DNA of 39,623 nt, from positions 1 to 39,623 of IMG/VR virus record IMGVR_UViG_3300033493_000006; one strand, 5' to 3'. The translations under genes were made by a program, and so were the position numbers. The notes under the pieces are model-generated. The model was not told the origin of the DNA. It saw only the letters and a program-made list of their open reading frames with translations, and searched no databases. The stretch's first letter is position 1. Each line of letters opens with the position of its first letter. The DNA is from a virus. Shown here in pieces: positions 2,159-39,416 of the stretch.

Positions 2159-2343
2159 GGTGTTGTTTCCTCGTCCTTCTCGTCGAGACCCGCCCAGCGC
2201 GCAACGTTCTCGAGCGCTTCGGAGACTGAGACGGCGCCTGCCTCCTCGGGGTCGGCATACACTGCGATCAGAAGCTGCCGCATCTGCTCGGCAGAAATTG
2301 GAACTGCTTCGGTTGCTGCTTGACTTTTTGTTGCTGAGGTCAT
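2155..2343 (-). CDS. Hypothetical protein, 62 aa
   Basis: Internal ATG at 2343 in an ATGA overlap (2340-2343) with the DnaC-like gene. Confidence 0.6.
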   Translation of the reverse strand: MTSATKSQAATEAVPISAEQMRQLLIAVYADPEEAGAVSVSEALENVARWAGLDEKDEETTP

Positions 2344-3059
2344 GGTTTCTCCTTCGGTGCTGCGTTGGTTGGTTTTCTCATCGAGGCCCCTGACGTCTCG
2401 ACGCGCACGTAGCTGGAAAGAATTCGATCCGTGATGCGAGCCCCAAGCCATCGAGACAGATTTCCGCCCAAGAGGTTCGAAGTCAGGAGCGTACGTCGCC
2501 CCCGGTCGTGTCTCGTGTCGAGGAGCGAACGCAGCGTCACGCGCGCGTGGTCGTTCTCGGCTTCTGCGCCAACGTCATCGATGACCAAGAGGTCTGCGCG
2601 CTCGAGTCGGTCGAGCTCCCCCGCGTCATCCCAGGTGGAGAGCTGGGCGATTCTAACGGCGGACGTCATGAAGGCCCATCGGCCCGTATCGAGCACCTGG
2701 GAGACTGCCCAGCGGGCCGCGACTGACTTGCCTGTGCCGACGGGGCCGAGGACGAGACACCAGCGCTCTGAGCCCTGGAGCCAGCCACGGACGCCACGCA
2801 ACGCGTCGGTCTCGGTGGCCGCAGCTGCGGCGCTTTCGGTGATGGTGGGTAGCTGTGGGCGCAGTCTTTGCGCCTTGTACGCAGCAAGGGCGGCGGCGTC
2901 GGCTTCGGCTCGTTCGGCGGCGAGCTCGACGTACCTGGCGGCGAGGGCCGGGTTCGCGTCCTCCCAGGCCTTGATGGCCGCCTTGGTGCGAGGCGACCAG
3001 TCGAAGGCGGGGCGACCAAGGGCTCGAATGTCGACCTCGATGTCGGTCAGGGATCGCAT
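2340..3059 (-). CDS. DnaC/IstB-like AAA+ ATPase (putative helicase loader), 239 aa
   Basis: Walker A LGPVGTGKS and Walker B LLVIDDVG. Directly downstream of the organizer-like gene with a 1-nt TGATG overlap at 3059. Confidence 0.8.
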   Translation of the reverse strand: MRSLTDIEVDIRALGRPAFDWSPRTKAAIKAWEDANPALAARYVELAAERAEADAAALAAYKAQRLRPQLPTITESAAAAATETDALRGVRGWLQGSERWCLVLGPVGTGKSVAARWAVSQVLDTGRWAFMTSAVRIAQLSTWDDAGELDRLERADLLVIDDVGAEAENDHARVTLRSLLDTRHDRGRRTLLTSNLLGGNLSRWLGARITDRILSSYVRVETSGASMRKPTNAAPKEKP

Positions 3060-4018
3060 CAGAAAGCCCCCTCGTTGACCGTCACGACGGCTTTGACGGG
3101 TCCGGTGCCCCGAAGGCCCACCTCAGAGCCCCGGTCGTCGTACGCGCCTTCCAGGACCTTCAGGGCCGGTTCTGGCTTCGACCCACCGGCCCGAAGTGCC
3201 CAGTCGATGTCCGCCCGCCACCCTCGGTCGCCTCCGGCCTCGCCGCGACAGAAGGCACTGGCGGAGATCCTGGCGAAGATCTCCCGCCACTGGCTCAGAG
3301 GGCGCCTGGCGAGGGCTGCGGTCGCCTCGTTGACCCGCCCAGCCTCCCACCTCGGCAGCGGCGGGGCGGTGAGCTCGTTCCACGCGGCCCGGAGGGCGTC
3401 GACCTCAGGCGTGTCGGTCGGGGGTGCCTTCGAGCGCTTCGGCGACTTCGGCGGTTTGTTCTCCGGAGGAGGCGATCCGAAGAGCTCCCCATGCGCCACG
3501 GGCGGGGGCGCGTCAGCGACCCCCTGGAACCCCTGGGCTGGTGGTTGGGCTGGTGGTTGGGCTGGTGGTTGGGCTGGTGGTTGGGCTGGGCTGGGCTGGG
3601 CTGGAGGGGGACAGCTCGTGACATCTTGTGACGGCGCGTGACGGCGCGTGACATCGCCTCCAGTAGTTTCGCGTGCTTTCGTTCGCTCCCGCTCTCTTTG
3701 GTCTTTTTTACGCCTCGCGTCAGTTTTCGTAGCTTCCTGGGCCTCGATGAAGTGTGGGATAAGGTACCCGCTAGGAACGACCTCGAGGGTTCCGTCGTCG
3801 ACCAGCGCCTCGATTGCCACTTCGACCACTTCGACCGGGACCATGATCAGCACCGACAGGGCGCGCAATGGATCTCGATTTCCGACCTCGATGACGCCGG
3901 CCCCATTCGATGCTTGGAGGAGGAGAGGGAAGACGCAGCGGCCCTGCCAAGGCCACATGCGCCACGTAGCTGTCTGTCGCGTGTAGAGTTTTACATACCT
4001 CTCATCGCACCAGTTCAT
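3059..4018 (-). CDS. Replisome organizer / replication initiator-like protein, about 319 aa
   Basis: N-terminal winged-helix-like domain (MNWCDERYVKLY...), basic linker with PAQP repeats, C-terminal W..IF..I..S.FCRGE..GWRADIDW..R motif. Precedes the DnaC-like gene. An alternative GTG start at 4054 is possible. Confidence 0.6.
   Translation of the reverse strand: MNWCDERYVKLYTRQTATWRMWPWQGRCVFPLLLQASNGAGVIEVGNRDPLRALSVLIMVPVEVVEVAIEALVDDGTLEVVPSGYLIPHFIEAQEATKTDARRKKDQRERERTKARETTGGDVTRRHAPSQDVTSCPPPAQPSPAQPPAQPPAQPPAQPPAQGFQGVADAPPPVAHGELFGSPPPENKPPKSPKRSKAPPTDTPEVDALRAAWNELTAPPLPRWEAGRVNEATAALARRPLSQWREIFARISASAFCRGEAGGDRGWRADIDWALRAGGSKPEPALKVLEGAYDDRGSEVGLRGTGPVKAVVTVNEGAF
3535..3602. repeat. 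Tandem repeats (gggctggtggtt)x4 followed by (gggct)x4
   Basis: Read directly. Encodes the PAQPPAQP... linker on the minus strand. (GGGCT)4 on the plus strand fits the canonical G3N2 x4 G-quadruplex motif. Confidence 0.95.
3618..3657. promoter_or_regulatory. Four 10-bp-phased GTGAC iterons (candidate origin of replication)
   Basis: GTGAC begins at 3618, 3628, 3638 and 3648: GTGACATCTT GTGACGGCGC GTGACGGCGC GTGACATCGC. Lies inside the organizer linker, next to a T-rich tract at about 3660-3735. The repeat is certain; the ori function is inferred. Confidence 0.45.
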
Positions 4019-4068
4019 GAAAAATACCCCGGCCACTGCGCAATGTTGCCGCACCGCGCGGGCCGGGG
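4019..4068 (-). terminator. Terminator-like hairpin plus T-tract directly upstream of the organizer ATG
   Basis: CCCCGGCC (4027-4034) pairs with GGCCGGGG (4061-4068). On the minus strand the stem is followed by TATTTTTC (4026-4019) and then the ATG at 4018. The loop is 26 nt and contains GCAACATTGC. Confidence 0.4.
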
Positions 4069-4550: not shown

Positions 4551-4825
4551 GGCCTCGCCTCGACCCGAACCCCGGCGTACGCGGCGAGCCAGGCGAGGAG
4601 ATCCACCGCGTCGACGTAGACGACGGTGTGGCCGTCCGCGTTTTCGCAGCAGACCTCGCCCCATAGCGTCTTGATGCCCTTGGCGCCGCCCAGCACGCGC
4701 ATCCGTAGTCGCCCTGTGCATGGACGAGGGACGACGAGCTGCACGAATTTGAGGCCTCGGGCGAGCGAGGCTTCGGCCTGTCCCGCCAGCACTGCGGCAG
4801 TCAGGGCGGTACCTATAGGCGTCAT
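4547..4825 (-). CDS. Hypothetical protein, 92 aa (MTPIGTALTAAVLAGQ...)
   Basis: ATGA overlaps at both ends (4822-4825 and 4547-4550). Confidence 0.6.
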   Translation of the reverse strand: MTPIGTALTAAVLAGQAEASLARGLKFVQLVVPRPCTGRLRMRVLGGAKGIKTLWGEVCCENADGHTVVYVDAVDLLAWLAAYAGVRVEARP

Positions 4826-5157
4826 GACTGGCCCTTCCCGCGGCTGAGCTGGCTGATCCACGGAAGGATTTCCTTGCGGCCTCGGACGAGGATCGCCTGC
4901 ACGTGATCGGCACTGGGATCGAATCCCCAGTTCCGAGTAGCGCAGATCTCCCACCAGGCGACGAACGCCGCGCGCTTGGCCTCCTCGAGTTTCGCGCGCA
5001 CCTCGGAGAGCTCGCGACGCAGCCGCGCCATCTCGTCGGCCGCCAGGTCGCATTCGTCGCAATCCTCGACCGATCCCCTGCCGTTGCAGGCCGAGCACGG
5101 CGGTGATCCGTCGCTGTCGTAGCGACCGCTTCCTCCGCAGGATGTGCAGGTCCTCAT
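4822..5157 (-). CDS. DnaJ-type zinc-finger (CxxCxGxG x2) protein, 111 aa
   Basis: CTSCGGSGR and CSACNGRGS match the DnaJ cysteine-rich repeat. GGGGAGGG SD lies upstream of the ATG at 5157. A coiled-coil follows. Confidence 0.65.
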   Translation of the reverse strand: MRTCTSCGGSGRYDSDGSPPCSACNGRGSVEDCDECDLAADEMARLRRELSEVRAKLEEAKRAAFVAWWEICATRNWGFDPSADHVQAILVRGRKEILPWISQLSRGKGQS

Positions 5158-5269
5158 GACCGGCCCTCCCCAATCAGCGCCCGCGCGGCATCGATGTCGC
5201 GGAGGCTCATGGCCGAACCTCCCGTGGCCTCGAGGCAGTGCGCGGGCGAGGGGCATTCGCAGGGGAGGA

Positions 5270-5710
5270 TCACGATCGCACCCCCGCCAGTACCTTCGCG
5301 ATCATTGCGTCGAACTCGTCTTCAGTTCCGCCCCAGCGGAGGAAGAGCCTCCGCCTCTGGATCCAGGTGAGAGTGACGTTGCGCTCCTTCACCTCGAGGA
5401 CTCGGGCACTGGTGCCCCGCCAGCTCGGAAACGGATCCTCGTTCGATGGCTCGGGGTCGACGAGCTCGACTCGATAGAGCGTGCCGCGCACCGCGCGAGA
5501 GGCGTAGTAGCGCGCGTACTCGCGATCAGAGGTCGCGTAGACGTAGCCCGAAGGAGTGCCTAGATCCTGCCCGGGAGCCCAGGTCCCGCTGCGCTGAGCC
5601 TCGCAGTGCGGGCAGCCCTCGACGTAGCGATGCTCGGCCATGTCGGGCTTGATGGTGGCGCCGCGCCAGAGACCGCCAACCCCGCCATGCCAGAGGACGA
5701 GCGGCTTCAC
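5270..5710 (-). CDS. Arr-like (rifampin-ADP-ribosyltransferase family) ADP-ribosyltransferase homolog, 146 aa
   Basis: Colinear with the Arr motifs. LWHGG matches (F/L)(Y/H)HGT. YVYATSDREYARYYA matches HVYxT..LDAAVWGAELA. GTLYRVELVDPEPSNEDPF matches GRI(F/Y)IVEP.G..EDDPN. PSWRGTSARVLEV matches P.RSYR..EP..IVGE. Candidate H-Y-D catalytic triad is present. GTG start in a GTGA overlap (5707-5710). Confidence 0.6.
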   Translation of the reverse strand: MKPLVLWHGGVGGLWRGATIKPDMAEHRYVEGCPHCEAQRSGTWAPGQDLGTPSGYVYATSDREYARYYASRAVRGTLYRVELVDPEPSNEDPFPSWRGTSARVLEVKERNVTLTWIQRRRLFLRWGGTEDEFDAMIAKVLAGVRS

Positions 5711-5889
5711 GGTCGCACCTCCCGCAGGCGACAATCGACGCGCCGCCCATCGAGCCACCTCGGCGCGTGGGGGCCGTCGCTGGAGTACCGGAGTCCGCCG
5801 CAGTCGTGGCAGGTGACGACGCGGTTGACGACGGGCTTGGTCTCGACGCGGGCCCAATCGGAGGCCCAGGTGATGACGGGGCCGCTCAT
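5707..5889 (-). CDS. Hypothetical small CxxC protein, 60 aa
   Basis: ATGA overlap at 5886-5889. TCHDCGG motif. Confidence 0.55.
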   Translation of the reverse strand: MSGPVITWASDWARVETKPVVNRVVTCHDCGGLRYSSDGPHAPRWLDGRRVDCRLREVRP

Positions 5890-6074
5890 CGTCCCCTCCT
5901 CTCGACGACTGCGCGCCACTCGCCCGAGGCTGGCTGGATTCGGCGGGCGAGCCGGGCAATGGCCTCAGCGTCGCGTCCGACAGCGAGCGGCTTGCGGTCG
6001 GTGGAACGGAGGACAACGAAGGCCATCTTCGCCGCGAGAAGCCGCTCATCTCGGACATTGCTGTCGAACATCAT
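5886..6074 (-). CDS. Hypothetical protein, 62 aa
   Basis: ATGA overlap at 6071-6074 with the first gene of the leftward operon. Confidence 0.55.
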   Translation of the reverse strand: MMFDSNVRDERLLAAKMAFVVLRSTDRKPLAVGRDAEAIARLARRIQPASGEWRAVVERRGR

Positions 6075-6280
6075 GACCTCACCCCTCCAGGAGGCGGGCC
6101 ACCAAGTCCCCTCGCCCGCCGCAGCGTGAATGCCAGGATCTCGGCCAGCGTGTCGTGAGTCAGCCCATTCTCCTCGCGCCGTTCGAGAACCCCAGAAGAA
6201 ACGATGGCCTCAGCAACGAGCTTCCAGGCCCTCCGCCTCCATTGACCGCGCAAGACTCTGCCATCTGTCTGTTTTTGCAT
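6071..6280 (-). CDS. Hypothetical basic protein, 69 aa; first gene of the leftward operon
   Basis: Internal ATG at 6280 preceded by a GAGGG SD. Faces the divergent control region. Confidence 0.55.
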   Translation of the reverse strand: MQKQTDGRVLRGQWRRRAWKLVAEAIVSSGVLERREENGLTHDTLAEILAFTLRRARGLGGPPPGGVRS

Positions 6281-6451
6281 ACCCTCAGAGTACGCCTTTA
6301 TTTTTTGAGCGCAAGACCTTGCCTTTCTGAATCTATCGGGGTACTCTGTTTTCACGGTCGCAAGGCCGGCGCAGCGGGCGATGGGTGGCGTAGTGTGGCG
6401 AGTCGTCTCTCGGAGACGAAGCCGCGAAAACACGTTGGAGGGGGCTCCAAA
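6281..6451. promoter_or_regulatory. Divergent early control region (promoters/operators)
   Basis: AT-richer 171-bp gap between divergent genes. Inverted repeat CAGAGTACGCC (6286-6296) / GGGGTACTCTG (6338-6348), 10/11. Palindromes GCAAGACCTTGC (6311-6322) and TCGTCTCtcgGAGACGA (6403-6419). T-run at 6298-6306. Confidence 0.5.
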
Positions 6452-6982
6452 ATGAAGAATGAATTCACGCACTCATTGGTTGACGCAGCGAGCAAGTTGG
6501 GATTGAGCACTAGTGACCTGATTTCGGCAATTTTCGCGGGAGAAATCCGAGCTGCATACGCAGTGGAGAAAGAGCAGTGGTTCGTCTCTGGGACGGACAT
6601 CGGTAGGATGCTGGCTCTCAGGGCCTCTGCCGGATCGAAGCCATCCGACGAAACACCGACGTGGCTTCACGATCACCTGCCATCGGCTGAGCGCTGGTGG
6701 AAGCTCTGGCTTGCAGACCGGGAGGCGCTTCGGCTCGCGCGCGAAGCCTGTGACACGCTCCCGACGAACCGCGGCGATCGGCTTCTCGGCGATCACGTGG
6801 CTGCTGAGCGGTCGAGCTCGCTCTATTACCTGTCCGAACTCATGACCGCAGAGACGCACGCGGTCTCGGCTCTGGCAGCACACGACGTGCGGCCTGAGGT
6901 CGTCGCTCGGGTCAAGGCTCGACGCTCCCGTCTCTCTGAGCTGATCAACGAGGTGCTGGCGGCAACGGGGTCGAAGCCATGA
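6452..6982 (+). CDS. Excisionase/MerR-type HTH DNA-binding protein, 176 aa
   Basis: LVDAASKLGLSTSDLISAIFAGEI...WFVSGTDIGRML fits the HTH_17 pattern. GGAGGGGG SD before the ATG at 6452. The 5' part has lower GC than the genome. Confidence 0.65.
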   Translation: MKNEFTHSLVDAASKLGLSTSDLISAIFAGEIRAAYAVEKEQWFVSGTDIGRMLALRASAGSKPSDETPTWLHDHLPSAERWWKLWLADREALRLAREACDTLPTNRGDRLLGDHVAAERSSSLYYLSELMTAETHAVSALAAHDVRPEVVARVKARRSRLSELINEVLAATGSKP

Positions 6983-7965: not shown

Positions 7966-8156
7966 CTATTCGAGAAGCAGCAGTGCTTTTCCGCACGGTG
8001 CGAAACCCGCCGAGCGACCTGGCAAGAGACCTCGCGCTGAGTCGCATCGTCCTCGTGGTGGCACAAGAGCTCGCGCACGAGCACGGAGTCAGCACGCAGG
8101 AGGCGGTGAAGGGCCTTCAAGACGTCATCAGGTCTCCGGTGGTGCAATGGCCCTGA
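7962..8156 (+). CDS. Hypothetical protein, 64 aa (MTIREAAVLFRTVRNPP...)
   Basis: ATGA-coupled start at 7962. Overlaps the exonuclease start by 10 nt. Confidence 0.55.
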   Translation: MTIREAAVLFRTVRNPPSDLARDLALSRIVLVVAQELAHEHGVSTQEAVKGLQDVIRSPVVQWP

Positions 8157-9028
8157 CGGAAGAGCAGCTTAAGCAGCGTCGTTCGGGCATCGGAGGGAGC
8201 GAGATTGCGGCAATCCTCGGCGAAGATGCGTTCTCGAGCCCGTTCGACGTCTGGCTGGCAAAGACGCAGGGGTGGGTCCGGCCCTCGAATCCAGACATGG
8301 AACGAGGTGCCCACCTCGAGGCAGGAATCGCGGAGTGGTACGCAGCGCGTACCGGCGCCGTGCTTGTCGAGTCCGCCACCCAGCGGCATGCCATGATCGG
8401 GATCGCCCTCTGTACTCCAGACCGCTTCGAGCGCGTTGGCCCTCGTTCGGAGTCGGCGCCGAGCGGAAGTCGCAGGCTCATCAGCATCAAGTCCCCGCGA
8501 CGAGGCGACGCTTGGGGGAAGGACGAGACAGACGACGTACCGCCAGGGTACCTGCTTCAGCTCCAGTGGGAGCACGCCGTGTGTGGATCCATGATGACTC
8601 TCGCGCCTGATATGCGGCTCGTCGCGCTCGTCGACGGCGACCTGCGCATCTACGAGACGCAAGCTGACCTCGAGATCCAGGCCTGGCTGCTCGAGTACGC
8701 ACAGCAATGGTGGGCCCGACACGTGGTGGGCGGTGAGCAGCCGCCGCTCGACGGGAGCAGCGAGGCGAATCGATGGCTGCGGACGAAGTTTCCTCGCGAC
8801 ACGGCCCCGATTCGGCCGGCGAGTATGGCCGAGGACCTCGGCATGCTCGAGCTTCGAGCCGTAGAGTCCGACCTCAAGCGACTGGAGGGCGAAGCCATGG
8901 CACTGAAGCTCGCACTGATGCAGGCGATCGGCGATGCCGGGGGGCTCGAGAGCCCGACAGGGATCATCACCTACAGGGCCGACAAGAACGGCAAACGCAG
9001 TTTTCGAACGAAGTGGGAGACGAAATGA
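8147..9028 (+). CDS. YqaJ/lambda-Exo-like recombination exonuclease, 293 aa
   Basis: N-terminal RRSGIGGSEIAAILG...SPFDVWLAKT...MERGAHLE is the characteristic YqaJ signature. Directly upstream of recT. Confidence 0.85.
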   Translation: MALTEEQLKQRRSGIGGSEIAAILGEDAFSSPFDVWLAKTQGWVRPSNPDMERGAHLEAGIAEWYAARTGAVLVESATQRHAMIGIALCTPDRFERVGPRSESAPSGSRRLISIKSPRRGDAWGKDETDDVPPGYLLQLQWEHAVCGSMMTLAPDMRLVALVDGDLRIYETQADLEIQAWLLEYAQQWWARHVVGGEQPPLDGSSEANRWLRTKFPRDTAPIRPASMAEDLGMLELRAVESDLKRLEGEAMALKLALMQAIGDAGGLESPTGIITYRADKNGKRSFRTKWETK

Positions 9029-9861
9029 GCACACCAGCAGCGCAGGCAATCCAGAAGAACACGTCGGCAACCCTCGGAGACCTTCTCCGTCAGCGAAAGG
9101 ACATGATCGCCCAACTCGTACCGAAGCACCTCACGGCCGAGCGCCTAATGCGAGTCGCGGTCAACTGCGTCGCGAAGACTCCGGATCTCCAGGAATGCTC
9201 GCCCACCTCGCTGCTTCAGTGCGTGCTCGTCTCGGCCGAGCTTGGTCTCGAGCCTGGTGGCGCGCTCGGGCACATGTACCTCGTGCCTTTCAAGGGCGTG
9301 GCGACGCCGATCATCGGGTATCGAGGCCTCCTCGAGCTCGCGCATCGTTCGGGTGACGTCTCATCGATCAGGGCTGTGGTGGTGCGCGAACGCGACAAGT
9401 TCCGCCTCACGGAAGGCATCGAGACGATCATCGATCACGAGCCGTACCTGGACGGAAACGCGGGGCCACTGAAGTACGTCTATTGCGTCATCAAGCTCAA
9501 AGACGGAGGAGTCCACGTAGAGTTGATGAACCGGGCACAAGTCGACGCGATTCGCGCTCGAAGCCGTGCGGCGAATAACGGGCCCTGGGTCACTGACTAC
9601 GACGAGATGGCGAAAAAGACAGTGGCGAGGCGAGCGCTGAAGTGGGTCCCGATGTCATCCGAGAGATTCGAAGCTGCGATCGAGCGCGACAACGCCGACT
9701 ACGTAGATGGGGACGTAGTTCAGCAGACGATCGATACCACGCAAGAGACGCTGAAGGAGCGTGTGGCGAAGAAGACCGGCCGCTTGCTTCAGGTGCCGGA
9801 AGAGCTCGCGACGGAGCCTGTTGACGACACGCCCCAGCCGAAGCCCACGCCGGCACCATGA
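9025..9861 (+). CDS. recT: RecT-family single-strand annealing protein, 278 aa
   Basis: LVPKHLTAERLMRVAVNCV..TPDLQECSPTSLLQCVL.SAELGLEPG...YLVPF and KKTVARRALKWVP are typical RecT motifs. ATGA overlap at 9025-9028. Confidence 0.85.
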   Translation: MSTPAAQAIQKNTSATLGDLLRQRKDMIAQLVPKHLTAERLMRVAVNCVAKTPDLQECSPTSLLQCVLVSAELGLEPGGALGHMYLVPFKGVATPIIGYRGLLELAHRSGDVSSIRAVVVRERDKFRLTEGIETIIDHEPYLDGNAGPLKYVYCVIKLKDGGVHVELMNRAQVDAIRARSRAANNGPWVTDYDEMAKKTVARRALKWVPMSSERFEAAIERDNADYVDGDVVQQTIDTTQETLKERVAKKTGRLLQVPEELATEPVDDTPQPKPTPAP

Positions 9862-15463: not shown

Positions 15464-16266
15464 CACAGCCCCCCGAGCACGTCGGGTGGATCGTCGCCAG
15501 CCAATACTGAACATTCAGTTGGAACGCACTGGGTGCCGACCGCGACATCGGCAGGGAGGACGTTACAGCCCCACCATCTTGCGCCGCCGTCGGGAAGGCC
15601 TCGAGGTCCGGTGGCCTTGCAGTCAGGAGCAGCGGGGTGACCGGCTCGTCCCGCCTTGCTGTCCCACCCGCCGTCTGGAGCTACCCAGCACGCCGGGAGG
15701 ACGCATGGCGGGGTCTCGGCCCACAGGCGATTGAGGACGGCACACGGGGTGTCAGGCCACGGGATGCCTGGAGCGGCTCCAGCGTCGTAGGTGGCGCAGC
15801 GGTCGGCGCGACAGGACGTCAGCTGGTACTGATTCGAGTCGTCGACGCCGCTCGAATCGCCGCCGTCGTCGGCCACCGACGCGTCGAGATCCACTCCGTC
15901 GAGGTTGTGCCGCAACGAGGGGACGACGATTTCGCCCTCGAGATCAGCGACACGGACAGACCAGTCGAGCGGCCGGAAGCAGTTGCCTCCGTCTGCGGTG
16001 AAGCACTTCGCGACTCGGGCGATTCGAGCGTAGAGCTGGTGGGGCCGCAGGAACCCGGGTTGCGCCGAGTTGATGCGCCGCCTCGTCTGCGGCGTCAGCT
16101 TCTCGGGACACACAAGGATGAGCGACTGCCCGTCGGCGAGCCCGGCGTCACGCAGTTCGGCCATTGTTCGGGTCGCTGGCTGAGGAGTGAGCAAGTAGAA
16201 GCCGGTGCCCCCAAGGACAACGACGCCGACGCCGATCAGCATTGCTCTGAGTTGTTCGGTCATCAT
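15463..16266 (-). CDS. N-terminally membrane-anchored Cys-rich protein, 267 aa
   Basis: TM segment LRAMLIGVGVVVLGGTGFYLL, then a domain with more than 12 Cys. TAATG 1-nt overlap with the fibre gene at 16266. Contains arm R of the inverted repeat. Confidence 0.65.
   Translation of the reverse strand: MMTEQLRAMLIGVGVVVLGGTGFYLLTPQPATRTMAELRDAGLADGQSLILVCPEKLTPQTRRRINSAQPGFLRPHQLYARIARVAKCFTADGGNCFRPLDWSVRVADLEGEIVVPSLRHNLDGVDLDASVADDGGDSSGVDDSNQYQLTSCRADRCATYDAGAAPGIPWPDTPCAVLNRLWAETPPCVLPACWVAPDGGWDSKAGRAGHPAAPDCKATGPRGLPDGGARWWGCNVLPADVAVGTQCVPTECSVLAGDDPPDVLGGL
15880..15920. repeat. Inverted repeat arm R (41 bp)
   Basis: cgcgtcgagatccactccgtcgaggttgtgccgcaacgagg. Its single difference from arm L gives a G-U pair in the minus-strand RNA. 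Confidence 0.95.
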
Positions 16267-17597
16267 TATCTACACCTATCAAGATTGGCATCCCAGCATA
16301 TGTTTTTAATGACTCCATCGAGATGGCTGACACCGACCGTATTGTCGGCAATCCCGGTAGTAGCAGAGGATCCACCAACCGCCACAGCCAGAGATGCAGG
16401 GCCATAAAAAAGACTACCGTCCACAAATATCGACATGACTCCATACCCAGAATACGCTGCTATCCTGGTCGGAGTCCCTGCTACAACGGTCACGGCTCCA
16501 GAGGTCTTTGAGACATATCCCGATCCCGTTCCGTTCTGAACCCTAATGGCCATGGACGGCAAGAAAAGATCGCTGCCTTTTAAGGCGTACTCACCCATCA
16601 ATATCGAAGGCAAAGCCGGGCCCGTGGATGTGCTCCATGGGACCACTATCGTAGCGGCCTTTGAGTATTGGCTAGGAAACAGACTCCCGTTGACCTTTGC
16701 TGTTTCTGCAGACCTGGCCGTAGCGACTCCAGATGTGGGGATGTAGCTTGTGATGTACTTCCCCGCCTCAGCGTCTGCGCCCCAGACGTAGACGCGATTC
16801 GACGTGCGTGTGGTTCCTCCATTGAGATAGGTCATGTTCCCAATGAAGAGTTGGCCGGCAGCTATCGACGTTACGTTTTCAATCTTGCATTGCGTCCAGG
16901 CGATCGAGTCAAACGAGCATGTCGAGCACGTGGCCGTTGGCGCTGCAGCTGTTTGGATGCACACATCCATCGCCCCGCTTCCGCTTGTGCCGCGAATCCA
17001 CACTTGAGCAGAATAGGCGGCGGCGGTGAGCACGCCGATCGCTCTGGCGCTGGCCTGCGTAGCTGCGGTCGCGTCAAAAGTGTAGTCCTCGGCTGTGAGT
17101 GTGCCGTCCGGAGCAAGAGCAGCGTCGGCCCCATTGAGGACCGGGGCCGCCGCACCATTGGCCGTGAAATCACCAAACGAGACGTCGTCAATCTCTTGGC
17201 TCCTGGGCACAACATTGGTGCGCGACGACTCGACAAGTAGCCCGGGTCCTCCTGTCCCGTTTCCTCCCGGCATTGACCGCGGCTTCCCGGAAGCGCAAAC
17301 CACCATATCCCCGACCGCCGCGTAGCTGGTGGACGACTTCATGCACACGCCAGAACTTGTCCGTGTAAACGCAATCGCCTCTTCCCTTGCTCCGGTGACT
17401 GGGCCGCATGCACAAACGCCATCCATCCCAACTCCATCTGGTGGGGCGAACTCGAAGTAGGCCCGCTTCGAGCACGGCACCAAGCCGCCACCCGCGTAGC
17501 CCTTGGGGCACGTGAAGCCGCCTCCTCGCCCGTACCCCACCGAGTCCGCCGAGCCCGCGAGGAGCAGCACGACGAGAGCGAGAAGGCGGGCAATCAC
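16266..17597 (-). CDS. Tail fibre / receptor-binding candidate with jelly-roll carbohydrate-binding-like and LamG-like domains, 443 aa
   Basis: APDGTLTAEDY...YSAQVWIRG...VYVWGADAEAGKYITSYIPTSGVATARSAE is the fibre/head-spike jelly-roll signature. The C-terminal part (AAYSGYGVMSIFVDGSL) is LamG-like. GTG start in a GTGA overlap (17594-17597). Hydrophobic N-terminus IARLLALVVLLLAGSADS. Confidence 0.65.
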   Translation of the reverse strand: MIARLLALVVLLLAGSADSVGYGRGGGFTCPKGYAGGGLVPCSKRAYFEFAPPDGVGMDGVCACGPVTGAREEAIAFTRTSSGVCMKSSTSYAAVGDMVVCASGKPRSMPGGNGTGGPGLLVESSRTNVVPRSQEIDDVSFGDFTANGAAAPVLNGADAALAPDGTLTAEDYTFDATAATQASARAIGVLTAAAYSAQVWIRGTSGSGAMDVCIQTAAAPTATCSTCSFDSIAWTQCKIENVTSIAAGQLFIGNMTYLNGGTTRTSNRVYVWGADAEAGKYITSYIPTSGVATARSAETAKVNGSLFPSQYSKAATIVVPWSTSTGPALPSILMGEYALKGSDLFLPSMAIRVQNGTGSGYVSKTSGAVTVVAGTPTRIAAYSGYGVMSIFVDGSLFYGPASLAVAVGGSSATTGIADNTVGVSHLDGVIKNICWDANLDRCR

Positions 17598-18010
17598 GTC
17601 AGCTCCCAGACGAAGAGATTGCCCGCCCCGCCGCTGGGGATCCACTGGATCCACCCGACGTCAGGCCGCATGAGGATGATCGCCTTCTCTGTCGCCGCGA
17701 GCGCGACCCCGTGGACGGTCCCGAATGCTGCGGGCACCACCGACTGATTTGCGATCGTCAGTGCTGGCGTGAGCCCGACCGCAACAAAGCCGGCGCTCGA
17801 TGGCTGGATCAAGAGCGTCTTGCCTGCCAGCGTGCCTTGCATCGTGCCCGGGCACGTGATGGCCGCGTTGAACGGGTTCGCTGTCGTGGCGTTGTTCACC
17901 GCTACGAGCACGCCGCTCGAGACGAGCACGCCCAGCTCGGTCGGCACGCCGTTGAGGTAGTGAATCGTGTCGCGCTCGGTGGGCGGGCGCGAAGTTCCGT
18001 AGGTCCCCAT
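17594..18010 (-). CDS. Hypothetical beta-rich structural protein, 138 aa
   Basis: Internal ATG at 18010, 1 nt after the upstream stop. GTGA-coupled to the fibre gene. Confidence 0.6.
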   Translation of the reverse strand: MGTYGTSRPPTERDTIHYLNGVPTELGVLVSSGVLVAVNNATTANPFNAAITCPGTMQGTLAGKTLLIQPSSAGFVAVGLTPALTIANQSVVPAAFGTVHGVALAATEKAIILMRPDVGWIQWIPSGGAGNLFVWELT

Positions 18011-34242: not shown

Positions 34243-36165
34243 TCAGGCTGCGGCTTGGGGGATGTTCGGGATAAGTTCCGACGTGGGGCTCGGCATCGGG
34301 TTGGCCTGAGGCTGGCCCCCAGATTCTGCCGGTGCCACAGCGGGCAACTGTGGGGGAGCTGCGGCGGTGAGGAGCATGTCCTCGAGCTGGGCGTTGTAGT
34401 CGCGCAAGAGGTCGAGCTTCTCGTCCTCGAGCCCCAAGAGCCGGTAGCGCTGGATGTACTCGAGGATCATTTCCTTGCTCAGCTGCAGGTCGTCGGTGGG
34501 CTCGGGGGGTTGGTACTCGCCGTCATCGACGATGGCGTCGAGGTTGCGCATGACGAGGTCTTCCTGTGCCGACGCCAGTGACTCGATGCTGTCGAGGTCG
34601 GCGAAGTCGAGCGCCTTCCTGCCTTGGCGGGGGGTGATCATGCCCGCCTGAATGTATTCCTGAATCGTCTGCAGGCGCCCCGCTGGGTCGCGCGGCAACC
34701 TCGAGACGGGGAAGCACTGCAACACGAATTCGTCCGTCTTCACCGCCTTGATGTCTTTCTTCCAGTCGATGGCGGTGAACGAGGTCTTCGACGGCGACCG
34801 CACCGGGCGAAGAGCGCCAGCGTCGGCGAGCTCACCCGCGAGCGCCACGGCCATGTTGGCCACCTCGAGGTAGAGGTTGTCGTTCGCTCGCTGCGTGGTG
34901 CGGTGCCGGTCGCTCTCCACGTCCTCCATCTCGCGAATCGCGACGCCACTGTTGAGACCCGCGGGCTTCGTCCCATGCGCCGACATCTGCGAGACGCCGG
35001 ACTTGTTGCGCGCTCGCTCGATGATCTCCCGCGTGTTCTGGAACCAGATCGGGTCGATGGGCTGAACCGTGATGTATTGCGGGGGCGTTCCCACGTAGTC
35101 GATGATCGTCCCGACGTCGTTGTTGAGGTGCTCCTTCACCGTCTTGCTGCCAGCCTGACGAAGGATCTTGAAGCTGCCCGCGAGCCGCATCGATTTCTGG
35201 ATCAGCTGGAGCTCGTAGTTCAGCTCGATCTGGTCGCCCTGGAGCTGCTCGCACAGGCCCTGGCTCCAGTAGCCCATGGGGCGCCGGCACCACGTCATGC
35301 GCGCGAAGGGGAACCACGGAAAGGGCCAGTCCTCGATCACCGTGAGCAGCGTCTCGTCCGAGACAAGGCTGATGACGTGCTTCCCGCCCTTGAGCTCGCC
35401 CTTTTCGTTCTCGTTCCCCAGGTGCCACGACTCGGCGACCTGCACCATGTCGGCCACCGACTCAGTCAACACGCCGCGCGTGTCCTTCGAGACGCGCATG
35501 ATGGCGTCCTTCTGCTCTGGGAAGTGGCCGGCGAGCTCGTCGCGGTCGACCAGCTTCAACCAGTGCATGTTCCTTGGCGCCCCGTATTGCCCCTCGACCT
35601 CATCGATCCACAGCTCGGTGGCCAGGGCGCGCTCGACACGAACGCGGCCATTTTGGCCGAAGACGTGGAGGAAGCCATCGCCTCCGACGAGTGCGTCGCG
35701 GAAGGCGTCCAAGCCCTTGTCGTAGACGCGCTCCTCATAGAAGACGCCCTCGACCCACTGGTTCAGCTTCTTCGCCTTGCGCTGCTGCTTGTACGACCCG
35801 CCGCTCGTGAGGAAGTAGGGGCGGGGCTTCGTCTCTCCAACGCGCGCGGTGAGCGTGTCCACGACCTCCTGGCACACGTTGTACGTGACCCGGTCGCGCT
35901 GCGCTGTGGCCGCCTGCTGAACCCGCGCGTAGGCCCCGCTCGTCGGCAGCGACAGGGAGCCGTAGAGGCGCTGGCTGATGACCTGTTGCCGCATTCGCAC
36001 CGTCTGCGCCTTCTGCAGCTTCTCAATCGTCGACCCGATGGACCGGGCGCACTCTCGACCCTCGAGGCGCCACCAGTCGCGGCGCACGCCCCGCTCGATG
36101 TCCGTGCGGTCGTCGCGGTGGGGCTTCTGTCCCGACTTCGGCTTCAGGTCTCGATAGTCGCTCAC
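34243..36165 (-). CDS. Portal protein, 640 aa
   Basis: Size and position upstream of the scaffold and capsid genes. GTG start in a GTGA overlap (36162-36165). Confidence 0.75.
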   Translation of the reverse strand: MSDYRDLKPKSGQKPHRDDRTDIERGVRRDWWRLEGRECARSIGSTIEKLQKAQTVRMRQQVISQRLYGSLSLPTSGAYARVQQAATAQRDRVTYNVCQEVVDTLTARVGETKPRPYFLTSGGSYKQQRKAKKLNQWVEGVFYEERVYDKGLDAFRDALVGGDGFLHVFGQNGRVRVERALATELWIDEVEGQYGAPRNMHWLKLVDRDELAGHFPEQKDAIMRVSKDTRGVLTESVADMVQVAESWHLGNENEKGELKGGKHVISLVSDETLLTVIEDWPFPWFPFARMTWCRRPMGYWSQGLCEQLQGDQIELNYELQLIQKSMRLAGSFKILRQAGSKTVKEHLNNDVGTIIDYVGTPPQYITVQPIDPIWFQNTREIIERARNKSGVSQMSAHGTKPAGLNSGVAIREMEDVESDRHRTTQRANDNLYLEVANMAVALAGELADAGALRPVRSPSKTSFTAIDWKKDIKAVKTDEFVLQCFPVSRLPRDPAGRLQTIQEYIQAGMITPRQGRKALDFADLDSIESLASAQEDLVMRNLDAIVDDGEYQPPEPTDDLQLSKEMILEYIQRYRLLGLEDEKLDLLRDYNAQLEDMLLTAAAPPQLPAVAPAESGGQPQANPMPSPTSELIPNIPQAAA

Positions 36166-37642: not shown

Positions 37643-37965
37643 CTCGGGCCACCCAGCTTCACGCCGAGTACCTGGCCGATCTTCTCGAGGGTCCTGGGGC
37701 TCGCCTTGTCTTGGGTCTCGAGGATCACCACAGCCTGAATCCCGAGCCCAGCCAGCTTCGCCAGTGCCTGCTGTGAGTGTCCGGCATCGACGCGCAAGGA
37801 TCTGGCTCGGTCTCCGAGCCCCTTGGTCACCGTCATCCCTCCGGTCATGCGCTGGCGTGGTGTCGGTCCATTCTGCGCAGAACGAAGCATTGCGAGCGCC
37901 ACAGCTACGCGGCGGGCGGCGTGCTCTATCTCCTCGACCGTCATCTTGCCGATGTCGGGGCTCAC
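37639..37965 (-). CDS. XRE-family helix-turn-helix protein, about 108 aa
   Basis: LGDRARSLRVDAGHSQQALAKLAGLGIQAVVILETQDKASPRTLEKIGQVLGVKL is an HTH_3 pattern. Probable GTG start at 37965 in a GTGA overlap with the terL stop. The ORF-track start is 37971. Confidence 0.75.
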   Translation of the reverse strand: MSPDIGKMTVEEIEHAARRVAVALAMLRSAQNGPTPRQRMTGGMTVTKGLGDRARSLRVDAGHSQQALAKLAGLGIQAVVILETQDKASPRTLEKIGQVLGVKLGGPR

Positions 37966-39416
37966 AGCCACCCCTCGAGTTCAGCGGCTTCCGCTCTCGC
38001 CTGTCGATTCGCCTCAAACTCCCGCTCCATTTCGGCCTCCAGTTCCTGCATCTGCCTGTGATGCTCGTGCTCGAACCACAGCGGCGTGTTGATCTTCGGA
38101 GGAGCCACCTTCGGCTCAACGAACGTCCAAGCGAGCGCCCTGCGCCAGGCATAGAGCGTGGCGTCTGCGATGTCGCTGTGGAAGCGCTCGCTGATCTTCG
38201 GCTTCTCGGGATTCGACCGGTCCCACTCGACGCGCATGCAGTCGTCAGCGAAGCGTGAGTCGGGCGGGGCGAAGAAGCGGCTCGTGCGCATGGCGTCGTT
38301 CAAGAGCTCGATGTGCTCGAGCTTGCGCTCCTTCTCGGCCGCCTCGATGGGTACCTGGGTCCTCTGGGTGATCTCCTCGGCGATCTTCTTGCCAAGTCCG
38401 CCCGTGTCGGCGACGACAGCCATCGGCTGGTAGCGGTCGTAGGCGCTCTTCACCCGCTCCATGAGGCCGGTGATCGACTGCTTCGCCCCGACCCACTCTT
38501 CGACGAGGTCGATCTCTGGCGAGTCATCGCGCCACCCCAGCACGGCGATGGCGTCGGCGTCGTCGAAGCCGAGGTCGACACCGATGACGTAGTGCTGCCA
38601 CGCGCGGCGCTCCGAGCGGCCGTTGCGTTCCGGGTCGAAGCGGAACACGAGCGCGTTGGCGTCGAGGACCCAGCGCCCGAACCACTCGCGCTGAATCGAC
38701 GCGTCGTCGACCGTCACCCCTCGCCTCTCGAGCTCCTGCGCCAAGAGGGCCTGAGGGGTGAACCCGCTCTTCTTCGCGATCCATGGATTGTCCACCACCG
38801 ACCACGAGTGGTGCGCCCACGTCGGCGAGACTGAGCAGTCGTGGAAGTACCCGACCGGCACCGGTCCAGGCGTGCCCACGAGGAAGAGCTGGCCAGCGAA
38901 GTCCATCAACGCGGGGGCAATCACCTCGTCCACCAGCTTCGCCAGGTAGGCGGGGAACGACTGCGCTTCGTCGACGATGCAGAGCCCGAGTGCCAGGCCT
39001 CGGAACTTCTCCACCTCGGATTCGTCCGCGGCCCCGCTGAGGTAGATTCTCGAGCCGTTGGTGAGCTCGAGACAGAGCTCGGCCTCCGACACCTTCGCGC
39101 CCAGCTTGTGCTTCTCAGCGAGCTCTTTGACGATGCCCCAGACGAGCCGCTTGGCGTTGATTCGGCTCAGCGTGATGTACAGCGCGACGCAACCGGGCTT
39201 CTTGCGTGCGACGTCGATGAGCTTCGCTGCGCACGCGTACGACTTGCCAGCGCGTCGGGTGCAGACGGCGGTGACTTGTCGCGCTGTCTCGGTGCCGAAC
39301 GGAAGCTGGCGCTCGAAGAGGATGCTCGAGAGGTCGAAGACGGCGTCGGCCGCACTTCGACGCTTCTCGAGCGCCTCAATGCGCCGCTGAATGGCCGCTG
39401 TCACCTTCGGCGCCAT
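37962..39416 (-). CDS. terL: Terminase large subunit, 484 aa
   Basis: Walker A CTRRAGKS and Walker B/catalytic LCIVDEAQ. RNaseH-like nuclease acidic motifs VIGVDLGFDD, VVADTGG and HSDIADA. Confidence 0.92.
   Translation of the reverse strand: MAPKVTAAIQRRIEALEKRRSAADAVFDLSSILFERQLPFGTETARQVTAVCTRRAGKSYACAAKLIDVARKKPGCVALYITLSRINAKRLVWGIVKELAEKHKLGAKVSEAELCLELTNGSRIYLSGAADESEVEKFRGLALGLCIVDEAQSFPAYLAKLVDEVIAPALMDFAGQLFLVGTPGPVPVGYFHDCSVSPTWAHHSWSVVDNPWIAKKSGFTPQALLAQELERRGVTVDDASIQREWFGRWVLDANALVFRFDPERNGRSERRAWQHYVIGVDLGFDDADAIAVLGWRDDSPEIDLVEEWVGAKQSITGLMERVKSAYDRYQPMAVVADTGGLGKKIAEEITQRTQVPIEAAEKERKLEHIELLNDAMRTSRFFAPPDSRFADDCMRVEWDRSNPEKPKISERFHSDIADATLYAWRRALAWTFVEPKVAPPKINTPLWFEHEHHRQMQELEAEMEREFEANRQARAEAAELEGWL

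Follow-up and report, generated by a model that had tools for sequence, protein, structure and literature searches.

Nearly everything known of Arr concerns antibiotic resistance. What the enzyme 'really' does in the cell is a long-standing question (PMC8120803), and its critical residues are H19, Y49 and D84 (PMC6092378; PMC8120803). Three of its elements contact rifampicin or belong to the rifampicin pocket: the SN[YF] motif in the β2-β3 loop at the NAD+ entrance, together with F39, which lines the pocket; the rifampicin-binding β5-β6 loop [LV]TK[KR]P, with V87, K91, L92 and P96; and the C-terminal α2 cap M[RK][DE]xL, with M126, L130 and L133 (PMC6092378). Arr-family enzymes also occur in phages, and a 2022 survey catalogues them in Gordonia and Microbacterium phages and in PBC5 and predicts small-molecule substrates for them (PMC9503650). 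With relatives annotated in GenBank and the family discussed in that survey, a phage Arr-like ADP-ribosyltransferase (ART) is not new in kind. Literature searches returned no experimental work on the CxxC-type phage proteins described below, and the Gordonia and Microbacterium phage papers that they did return were set aside, as they concern unrelated VIP2-like toxins.

The window analysed here is a stretch of 39,623 nucleotides that represents an uncultured, ~39.6-kb phage, with genes for terminase, portal, tail, RecT, RecE-like, O-like, DnaC-like and RusA proteins. The Arr-like gene and its surroundings comprise the following features.

5270..5710, minus strand: Arr-like ADP-ribosyltransferase coding sequence, 146 aa, GTG start at 5710 and TGA stop at 5272-5270
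5718..5723, minus strand: Shine-Dalgarno-like GGGAGG with a 7-nt spacer to the GTG start, read directly from the sequence
5707..5710, minus strand: GTGA start/stop overlap with the upstream small gene, a 4-nt overlap also present in independent gene calls
5707..5889, minus strand: upstream 60-aa gene with a CHDC motif, not kept beside the enzyme in other loci
4822..5256, minus strand: downstream gene, predicted at 111 aa from 5157, carrying two CxxCxGxG motifs of DnaJ type; elsewhere not kept beside the enzyme
3059-4054, minus strand: O/DnaD-like replication initiator, downstream in the same leftward operon as the Arr-like gene
2340-3059, minus strand: DnaC-like helicase loader, downstream in the same leftward operon

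The 146-aa minus-strand ORF (5710..5270) is a real gene; independent gene calls give an identical product on four other contigs of the same phage, and its predicted mass is 16.5 kDa. GC3-based gene calling was not discriminating at the 65% GC of this DNA. The GTGA overlap suggests that the gene is translationally coupled to the small gene upstream, as a first-pass annotation of the DNA had proposed; the overlap itself is real, but the functional link to CxxC proteins that was read into it is unsupported, because no neighbour is conserved across the 21 loci compared. For the nearby DnaJ-type zinc-finger gene, also named in that annotation, the two CxxCxGxG motifs are present at 4822-5256, and the gene's database matches are weak (DnaJ_CXXCXGXG, E 0.16; PHROG 12902, E 7.7e-9). 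The operons of this region are divergent, and, judged from gene order, the Arr-like gene sits in a predicted lambda-like early operon, just upstream of the genes for the O/DnaD-like initiator and the DnaC-like loader, consistent with the placement first given to it. No sigma-70-like site was detected when the divergent region was scanned for promoters, ten further window ORFs included no integrase or repressor domain, and no tRNA genes were found in the window. The phage is new at the DNA level, because megablast with 25 kb of the window returned no cultured phage; its nearest genomic relatives come not from actinobacteria but from one Myxococcota and one Acidobacteriota MAG.

A similar phage context was found at 20 other loci, in Gordonia, Arthrobacter and Streptomyces phages and in Streptomyces prophages. 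When the neighbourhoods of all 21 loci were compared, the sole family common to them was the Arr-like enzyme itself, and no partner gene (antitoxin, macrodomain or CxxC neighbour) was conserved across them. The other recurrent neighbours were antisense ORF artefacts and, in subsets of the loci, WhiB, ParB and RusA. The enzyme gene is thus solitary, in the window as elsewhere, within the early or replication-recombination region of phages or prophages, and its neighbourhood at the 21 loci indicates no particular target.

At least 85 close homologues of the window protein were found, nearly all of them in prophages or on phage-sized contigs. The protein matches PHROG 17296 over 122 of 125 profile positions (E 1e-20), and tblastn gave 41-46% identity to 16 Gordonia phage records and 1 Arthrobacter phage record. 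A shared signature, HGG ... CxxC ... VY[AF]T ... YA[RK]xYAS ... LYxV ... S-x-E-D, is found in the invariant positions of the clade alignment, in the conservation of 139 members and in the Gordonia and Arthrobacter proteins, and on these sequence grounds the window protein is assigned to a CxxC-type phage Arr-like ART clade (PHROG 17296). For instance, gp68 of Gordonia phage EMsquaredA, gp61 of Pickett and gp58 of Arthrobacter phage BruhMoment share its CxxC insertion, HGG, Y..YA[RK].YAS and S.ED, and their genes have the same early-region setting, with RecT upstream and RusA downstream. Unlike the window protein, Streptomyces phage TurkishDelight gp70 and Sinorhizobium phage PBC5 orf74 are without the CxxC and retain an Arr-like D-P-D. 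Many of these relatives, in Gordonia, Arthrobacter and Streptomyces phages and PBC5, are labelled 'ADP-ribosyltransferase' in GenBank. The family as a whole is found in phages of soil actinomycetes, in the Myxococcota and Acidobacteriota MAGs and in Sinorhizobium, and the hosts of relatives include Amycolatopsis, a rifamycin-producing lineage. Some copies lie in Streptomyces prophage-like regions and one on an integrase-bearing contig. GNAT acetyltransferase fusions occur in four distant relatives; one such fusion protein, P0209, had no match in genome contigs.

The relationship to Arr was followed with two alignments, A1 for the window (CxxC) clade and A2 for 34 relatives that are without the CxxC. 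In hhalign comparisons A1 matched A2 at 99.9% (E 6e-34), A2 matched Arr at 97.7% (E 2e-12), and A1 matched Arr directly at 90.9% (E 1.2e-6). Pfam Arr-ms was matched by 19 of the 34 A2 members, with P0196 scoring 28.8 bits against the 25-bit cut-off of PF12120. The window protein itself matched no Arr family in Pfam or NCBIfam, falling below both thresholds (the NCBIfam rifampin_ARR equivalog, NF033144, is set at 130 bits), so that the Arr-ms match to which the first-pass annotation had looked did not materialise; only 2 of 42 clade members gave even a weak one (E 0.043). Because the family thresholds are not reached, the sequence link from the window protein to Arr runs through profiles only. 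A single-sequence search of PDB sequences returned no match. A cytochrome c7 match of the A1 profile among PDB sequences, over the CxxC-containing segment, was weak and non-significant (E >=0.06) and was discarded.

The predicted fold points in the same direction. The AlphaFold (AF2) model of the window protein has a pLDDT of 88 and a pTM of 0.80, and its best three PDB matches in Foldseek are the Arr entries 9iaf, 2hw2 and 9iba (probability 1.00, E 1e-3 to 2e-3, TM 0.40-0.55), followed by Rhs ART toxins, cholera toxin and LT. Profile and structure searches, which had been set beforehand as the refuting test of an Arr-family reading, thus returned ART-fold matches, and that reading gains from the three Arr structures and from profiles that link the protein to Arr both directly and through A2. 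The profile chain and the predicted structure, as two independent lines, support homology to Arr, a resemblance beyond chance. Arr (Arr-ms, 2HW2/9IAF; Arr-2, 9IBA; PF12120) is also like the window protein in its size of ~140-150 aa and its minimal ART fold. The segments of the protein that bear on its NAD+ site and acceptor site are as follows.

5681..5689, minus strand: His8-Gly9-Gly10, counterpart of the Arr H19-G-T NAD+-binding motif (hhalign, MAFFT)
5555..5644, minus strand: residues 23-52, clade-specific insertion replacing the Arr SN[YF] loop, pLDDT 71-78
5603-5614, minus strand: Cys33-x-x-Cys36, with Cys33 just before a predicted helix at 34-40
5495..5545, minus strand: residues 56-72 (YVYATSDREYARYYASR), the Tyr58 strand and then helix α1 with Tyr65, Arg67, Tyr69 and Ser71, placed by the alignments
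5459..5482, minus strand: residues 77-84 (TLYRVELV), strand equivalent to Arr GRIFIVEP, Tyr79 in 139/139
5435..5446, minus strand: Ser89-Asn-Glu91-Asp92, with Glu91/Asp92 as candidate catalytic acids (hhalign, MAFFT)
5276..5365, minus strand: residues 116-145, two C-terminal helices (Arg-rich IQRRRLFLRW, then EDEFDAMIAKVLAG) instead of the Arr α2 cap (AF2, MAFFT)

In hhalign and MAFFT alignments the protein is colinear with the small Arr enzymes, as had been claimed, with the HG[TG] histidine, the β3 tyrosine, the G-x-[YF]-x-VE strand and the [ST]-[WY] strand in order. WHGG falls at the position of the Arr HGT motif (His19, end of β1), with Gly in place of Thr, and is close to invariant among the 139 clade members (H8 in 138, G9 and G10 in all). 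The stretch YVYAT, proposed as the catalytic tyrosine motif, also aligns as expected, its VYAT with Arr Y49, so that Tyr58 is opposite Arr Tyr49 in β3 (Tyr in 130/139, Phe in 6). The proposed strand matches hold as well, with G-LYRVE opposite Arr GRIFIVEP and SW opposite Arr SY. The assignment of the catalytic acid is where the earlier reading is doubtful. It had paired the window's EDP with the Arr DDP and its catalytic Asp, a pairing of Glu91-Asp92-Pro with the Arr D-P that requires an assumed insertion of 2-3 residues; the gapless hhalign and MAFFT alignments place Ser89 opposite the catalytic Asp84 of the Arr DPN[VL] motif and Glu91 opposite Arr Asn86. The extent of the local Pfam match on a Gordonia phage orthologue agrees with Ser89 at the Asp84 position. 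Both acids are nonetheless conserved in the clade (E91 in 126 and D92 in 129 of 139).

In diphtheria toxin and PARP the second tyrosine lies at +11. The window protein has Tyr69 at Tyr58+11 (conserved in 127/139), in the manner of those enzymes, whereas Arr has Trp59 and Gly60 there. At the level of sequence, the conserved H8, Y58, Y69 (+11) and E91-D92 pair can be compared with the H-Y-Y-E set, the canonical constellation of diphtheria-like ARTs (PMC12421852). The protein could be inactive, or bind NAD+ only, should both Glu91 and Asp92 fall short of the ribose.

The loop that in Arr carries the SN[YF] motif is rebuilt. That motif is absent from the window protein in hhalign and MAFFT alignments, and a CxxC segment takes its place, the whole replacement being ~30 residues and ~20 aa longer than the matching Arr loop. 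The first-pass annotation was right to describe an extra CPHC-containing insertion here, since C33 and C36 are invariant in A1 and both are present in 139 of 179 near-full-length relatives. Residues 23-52 are also the least confident region of the AF2 model. A classical intramolecular zinc finger was considered for the CxxC and rejected, with only C33, C36 and D49 conserved in the insertion; as pure conjecture, the cysteines probably give the NAD+ loop a redox-sensitive or metal-bridging element.

The other two rifampicin elements fare no better. The β5-β6 loop is 8 residues shorter than in Arr, with a gap opposite Arr-ms DKKLPGNP in MAFFT and an equal-length gap in the sister clade in hhalign, and the α2 motif M[RK][DE]xL was not found in the C-terminus, in either the AF2 model or the MAFFT alignment. 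An additional C-terminal helix further sets the phage-borne protein apart from Arr, and R119 (126/139) and W126 (108/139) are conserved in this region. The cleft is lined by charged and aromatic residues (Arg63, Arg67, Arg72 and Arg119; Tyr65, Tyr68 and Tyr69), unlike the hydrophobic set of Arr. With the three rifampicin-contacting or pocket elements lost or replaced, some other molecule is probably modified, and the doubt voiced at first about rifamycin as the substrate gains weight. As far as its sequence indicates, the window protein is not a bona fide rifamycin Arr.

The protein is probably an early-expressed, stand-alone, NAD+-dependent mono-ADP-ribosyltransferase of the diphtheria-toxin/Arr fold, belonging to a phage-borne sister clade of Arr that uses a non-rifamycin acceptor, a reading drawn from sequence and model. 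It would be made early in infection and bind host NAD+; Glu91 or Asp92 would stabilise the oxocarbenium-like transition state through which nicotinamide leaves, and ADP-ribose would pass to an acceptor, other than a rifamycin, held between the Tyr/Arg-rich helix α1 and the Arg-rich C-terminal helix. Against this stand the Ser at the position of the Arr catalytic Asp and the rebuilt NAD+-covering loop, which are equally what one would cite for an NAD+-binding pseudo-enzyme or an NAD+ glycohydrolase, such as a decoy that interferes with NAD+-dependent host immunity. ART-fold NADases do exist (PMC9503650), but the His, both Tyr and the Glu-Asp pair are kept in at least 90% of the 139 members across phyla, as expected for a working active site, and early NAD+ depletion would presumably hurt the phage's own replication, so that we regard such a role as improbable. 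A genuine rifamycin resistance enzyme, an Arr orthologue shielding from environmental rifamycins the host RNA polymerase that the phage needs, would explain why Arr is the best match by structure and profile and would suit the occurrence of relatives in hosts from rifamycin-producing lineages such as Amycolatopsis; Arr is, moreover, broad in specificity and makes few direct rifampicin contacts (PMC8120803). The failure to match Pfam Arr-ms or NCBIfam rifampin_ARR, the absence or deletion of the SN[YF], [LV]TK[KR]P and M[RK][DE]xL elements, and the Ser at the Asp84 position make it very unlikely. Scarcely any credence is given to a prophage-encoded toxin or abortive-infection effector guarding a lysogen against other phages: copies are found in Streptomyces prophage-like regions and on the integrase-bearing contig, and ART effectors such as DarT work in defence (PMC9503650), but the gene lies within a lytic early/replication operon and adjoins neither repressor nor integrase, the window ORFs tested include no integrase, the 21 loci share no antitoxin or hydrolase partner, and PADLOC returned no match for the window protein and three relatives.

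What the preferred transferase would modify is a matter for lesser confidence. Our guess, which we put somewhat short of even, is that the enzyme serves host take-over or counter-defence by acting on a conserved macromolecule of the host, which would be nucleic acid or a core protein. Possible, if rather doubtful, is a non-rifamycin small molecule instead, with a diffusible antibiotic, an anti-phage metabolite or an immune signalling nucleotide ADP-ribosylated so that the infected soil host stays productive. The closest characterised relative, Arr, ADP-ribosylates a small-molecule hydroxyl, the C23-OH of rifamycin, and the AF2 model and Foldseek give the window protein the same minimal architecture, with a cleft between two helices. 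The GNAT fusions in four distant members of the sister clade are a combination typical of xenobiotic-modifying enzymes; these fusions and the small-molecule habit of Arr both weigh against the macromolecular guess. The spread of the family across phages of soil actinomycetes, the two MAGs and Sinorhizobium, and the absence of an immunity or antidote partner at the 21 loci, would suit a small molecule too, and the same proposal appears in PMC9503650. However, without conserved Arr pocket elements there is no specific ligand to name; the cleft is rich in Arg and Tyr; and it is conserved across phages of different phyla, whose metabolites differ greatly. A bolder and quite tentative version of the macromolecular guess, held at clearly less than even confidence, is that the CxxC clade is the first branch of the Arr lineage to leave antibiotic modification, with a rebuilt cleft (rifampicin loop deleted, walls rich in Tyr and Arg), the acid shifted to a Glu-Asp pair, and a CxxC redox or metal module, and that in several soil phyla it would act at the onset of infection on a host macromolecule (nucleic acid, RNA polymerase, or the translation or replication machinery) or a defence component.

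A widespread phage clade that appears to retain NAD+ chemistry without the rifamycin pocket makes it testable whether the minimal ART scaffold has other targets, and, because orthologues occur in cultured Gordonia and Arthrobacter phages, the question is open to both genetics and biochemistry. Should the enzyme act on a host macromolecule or a defence component, the clade would be a new family of phage take-over or anti-defence enzymes; should it act on a small molecule, the gene would be a phage-borne detoxification gene of relevance to resistome surveys. In such surveys, genes of the CxxC clade should not count as rifampicin resistance.

Other minimal ART domains offer partial parallels. DarT and Tpt1/KptA, the analogies first drawn for this protein, act on non-protein acceptors; the window protein matched neither DarT nor Tpt1 in Pfam or among its best 50 fold matches, the Tpt1-type H-H-h clade has His at the second catalytic position where the window protein has Tyr, and a DarG-like macrodomain partner was found at none of the 21 loci. 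AcrIF11, an anti-CRISPR of phages and plasmids, differs in that it has no sequence match to the window protein, is not among its best 50 structural matches and has other key residues (H-F-H-D), but it is also a very small ART of the diphtheria-like type, with neighbouring acidic residues and a catalytic set that departs from the canonical one. Working on its own, it targets N250 of Csy1, a host defence protein (PMC12421852), and so sets a precedent for protein modification by a tiny phage ART.

The enzyme, a candidate ADP-ribosyltransferase (ART), is encoded in a phage genome of about 39.6 kb, and is the third called gene of a leftward operon, ahead of the replication initiator and loader. The genes that locate it are as follows.

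756-1181, leftward, RusA
2340-3059, leftward, DnaC-like loader
3059-4054, leftward (minus strand), O/DnaD-like initiator
4822-5256, minus strand, small gene with two DnaJ-type CxxCxGxG zinc-finger motifs
5710 to 5270, minus strand, enzyme ORF (146 aa, GTG start)
8147-9028, rightward, RecE-like exonuclease
8773-9861, rightward, RecT
16266-17654, minus strand, tail protein
34243-36165, minus strand, portal
37962-39416, minus strand, large terminase

The enzyme is a real, conserved gene. The sequence GGGAGG lies 7 nt 5' of the GTG start, and the GTGA overlap with the stop of an upstream 60-aa gene, already described in the first-pass annotation, was recovered (4 nt) together with the 146-aa product when genes were called independently on further contigs of this phage (99.6% DNA identity). 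A word-indexed search returned 85 homologues at E ≤ 1e-3, and an exhaustive profile search 556 representative clusters. The zinc-finger gene that the annotation had placed nearby lies directly 3' of the enzyme; both motifs are present, its DnaJ matches are weak, it matches PHROG 12902 (E 7.7e-9), and an alternative gene caller starts it at 5157 (111 aa). Two plus-strand antisense ORFs that overlap the enzyme gene (5144-5563 and 5238-5477) and recur at other loci were rejected as high-GC artefacts, which look conserved only because the sense gene is. Several independent metagenome assemblies contain the same genome, on contigs of 39,613-39,686 bp (99.6% identity over 6.4 kb), and the window is therefore probably a complete genome. 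A megablast of 25 kb of the window against 50,697 records of cultured phages gave no match; no tRNA genes were found, nor an integrase among the ORFs tested.

Searched alone, the protein has no match in Pfam, PDB sequences or NCBIfam, and matches PHROG 17296 (E 1e-20), a family with no assigned function. Kinship to the rifamycin ADP-ribosyltransferase Arr emerges through a chain of profiles. From 42 close homologues, all of the window's CxxC type, an alignment (A1) was built that led by exhaustive search to a sister set lacking CxxC (A2), which A1 matches in hhalign at 99.9% (E 6e-34). Pfam Arr-ms is matched by 19 of 34 A2 members, one of which (P0196, 28.8 bits) exceeds the 25-bit threshold, and A2 matches Arr-2 at 95.8% (E 7e-9). 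A small Arr profile (Arr-ms, Arr-2 and 30 database Arr proteins) matches A2 at 97.7% (E 2e-12) and A1 directly at 90.9% (E 1.2e-6). The AlphaFold2 model (mean pLDDT 88.2, pTM 0.80) finds all three Arr entries, 9iaf, 2hw2 and 9iba, as its top three PDB matches in Foldseek (probability 1.00, TM up to 0.55), followed by Rhs ADP-ribosyltransferase toxins, cholera toxin and LT; matches among viral models include one protein named rifampin ADP-ribosyl transferase. These two independent lines, profiles and predicted structure, therefore support both the ART fold and kinship with Arr in particular, as the first-pass annotation had proposed from motifs. As a curiosity given the CxxC insertion, the next-best matches after Arr (8s2n_B, 8s2m_B and 9gco) are TreTu and TreX, Rhs ART toxins from Xenorhabdus that were crystallised with thioredoxin.

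In Arr, the critical residues are H19 (in HGT), Y49 and D84, an SN[YF] loop sits at the NAD+ entrance, and rifampicin is gripped by helices α1 and α2 (M[RK][DE]xL) and the β5-β6 loop ([LV]TK[KR]P, DPN[VL]) (PMC6092378, PMC8120803). The motifs WHGG and YVYAT hold up as the His and Tyr motifs, W-H8-G-G aligning with HGT and V-Y58-A-T with Y49; likewise G76-x-L-Y79-x-V-E aligns with GRIFIVEP and S96-W97 with S99-Y100. The SN[YF] loop, in contrast, has given way to a segment some 20 aa longer (residues ~23-52), and this is the CPHC-containing insertion noticed earlier, with an invariant C33-x-x-C36 whose C33 immediately precedes a predicted helix (34-40). The β5-β6 loop is 8 residues shorter than that of Arr and has lost the [LV]TK[KR]P element, the α2 motif is missing, and the C-terminus consists of two helices, the first Arg-rich. 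In structure the protein is a variant of the Arr type, and it should not be catalogued as a rifamycin-resistance Arr.

Residue conservation in the CxxC clade (139 near-full-length members).
H8, 138/139
G9 and G10, 139/139 each
Y58, 130/139
Y65, 134/139
R67, 115/139 (K in a further 13)
Y69, 127/139
S71, 122/139
Y79, 139/139
S89, 118/139
E91, 126/139
D92, 129/139
R119, 126/139

Y58 and Y69 are separated by 11 residues, the spacing of the nicotinamide-stacking tyrosine pair in diphtheria-toxin-like H-Y-Y-E enzymes (DTX, PARP1). H-Y-Y-E is the named motif of that group (PMC12421852). The position of the acid is where the alignments do not bear out the earlier reading: E91-D92-P had been equated with D83-D84-P of Arr, but hhalign of A1 and A2 and MAFFT place S89 at D84 and E91 at N86, and the extent of the local Pfam match on a Gordonia orthologue fits this placement. 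Non-CxxC relatives, including PBC5 orf74 and TurkishDelight gp70, have D-P-D, with an acid at both positions. The series of D-P-N in Arr, D-P-D in the sister clade and S-x-E-D in the window clade suggests that the acid shifted two or three residues along the shortened loop; the catalytic acid of the CxxC clade is probably displaced, with E91 and D92 as candidates.

The clade is already annotated and uncharacterised. Proteins 41-46% identical and bearing the same CxxC signature are encoded in sixteen Gordonia phage records and by Arthrobacter phage BruhMoment, many such relatives are annotated 'ADP-ribosyltransferase', and the non-CxxC form occurs in Streptomyces phage TurkishDelight (similarly annotated) and Sinorhizobium phage PBC5. 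Iyer et al. listed Arr-family enzymes in Gordonia and Microbacterium phages and in PBC5, and predicted rifamycin-like antibiotics or other diffusible compounds as targets (PMC9503650), and a literature search found no experimental study of these phage proteins. A phage Arr-like ART is therefore not a new idea in the literature or GenBank; what is added here is a CxxC clade without the rifamycin-specific features of Arr, with its acid probably displaced, occurring as a solitary gene in phages of several phyla. The category is known, and the target is testable in cultured actinophages.

In a comparison of 21 loci, drawn from the window, viral contigs, prophage regions of Streptomyces, and phages of Gordonia and Arthrobacter, no protein family other than the enzyme was common to all, the other recurrent families being its antisense ORFs, or WhiB, ParB and RusA in subsets. 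The window's CxxC neighbours, including the 4822-5256 gene, are not conserved beside it at these loci. Its setting is an early, replication or recombination region at every one. From the lambda-like operon layout we infer that the window enzyme would be expressed early. The closest of the genome-borne relatives, at 56% identity, is in an Archangiaceae (Myxococcota) MAG; others come from a Thermoanaerobaculaceae MAG and from many genomes of Streptomyces, Nonomuraea and Amycolatopsis. Four distant non-CxxC relatives of ~380-406 aa (P0209, P0210, P0211 and P0230) fuse an Arr-like ART to a C-terminal GNAT domain (Pfam Acetyltransf_1/_7), and a scan of genome contigs with P0209 gave no match; many other proteins of this distant non-CxxC group end in a conserved extension, W.DG.P.Y...G.

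The best-supported reading, and a fairly probable one, is that the protein would act as an active, early-expressed mono-ADP-ribosyltransferase, taking NAD+ from the host and modifying an acceptor other than rifamycin. For that acceptor we lean slightly and tentatively towards a conserved host macromolecule, because the walls of the cleft keep their charged and aromatic character in phages from different phyla, because the neighbouring genes serve replication and recombination, and because there are other very small phage ARTs that act on proteins, AcrIF11 among them (PMC12421852). The main rival, a non-rifamycin small molecule, is possible and somewhat less probable; it is the substrate type of the nearest characterised enzyme, GNAT fusions are present in the sister clade, and the published prediction points the same way (PMC9503650).

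The three remaining readings carry less weight. That the protein is an NADase or a pseudo-enzyme is unlikely. A genuine rifamycin Arr is more doubtful again, and the CxxC clade lacks the features of Arr that are specific to rifamycin. A prophage defence toxin is at least as improbable, and no macrodomain, hydrolase or antitoxin-like partner was found at the 21 loci compared.

The leftward operon (ART and replication) diverges from the rightward recombination operon (RecE-like and RecT) at about 6.1-6.5 kb. No sigma-70-type promoter was found at this junction (~6070-6500), where two ORFs overlap, one of 133 aa on the minus strand (6071-6472) and a long one on the plus strand (6155-6982); the mid-part of the latter looks helix-turn-helix-like by eye, and it has no family match. 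The initiator gene contains two tandem repeats.

3534-3589 and 3610-3657, in the minus-strand gene, initiator-gene tandem repeats

A perfect 12-bp repeat, TGGGCTGGTGGT (4.7 copies, encoding PAQP), is followed by a degenerate 10-bp repeat (4.8 copies). The 12-bp unit has two full copies in the same phage from two other samples versus four in the window, which accounts for the difference in initiator length (24 nt, 8 aa); by analogy with lambda gene O the repeats could be origin iterons, or merely a variable linker.
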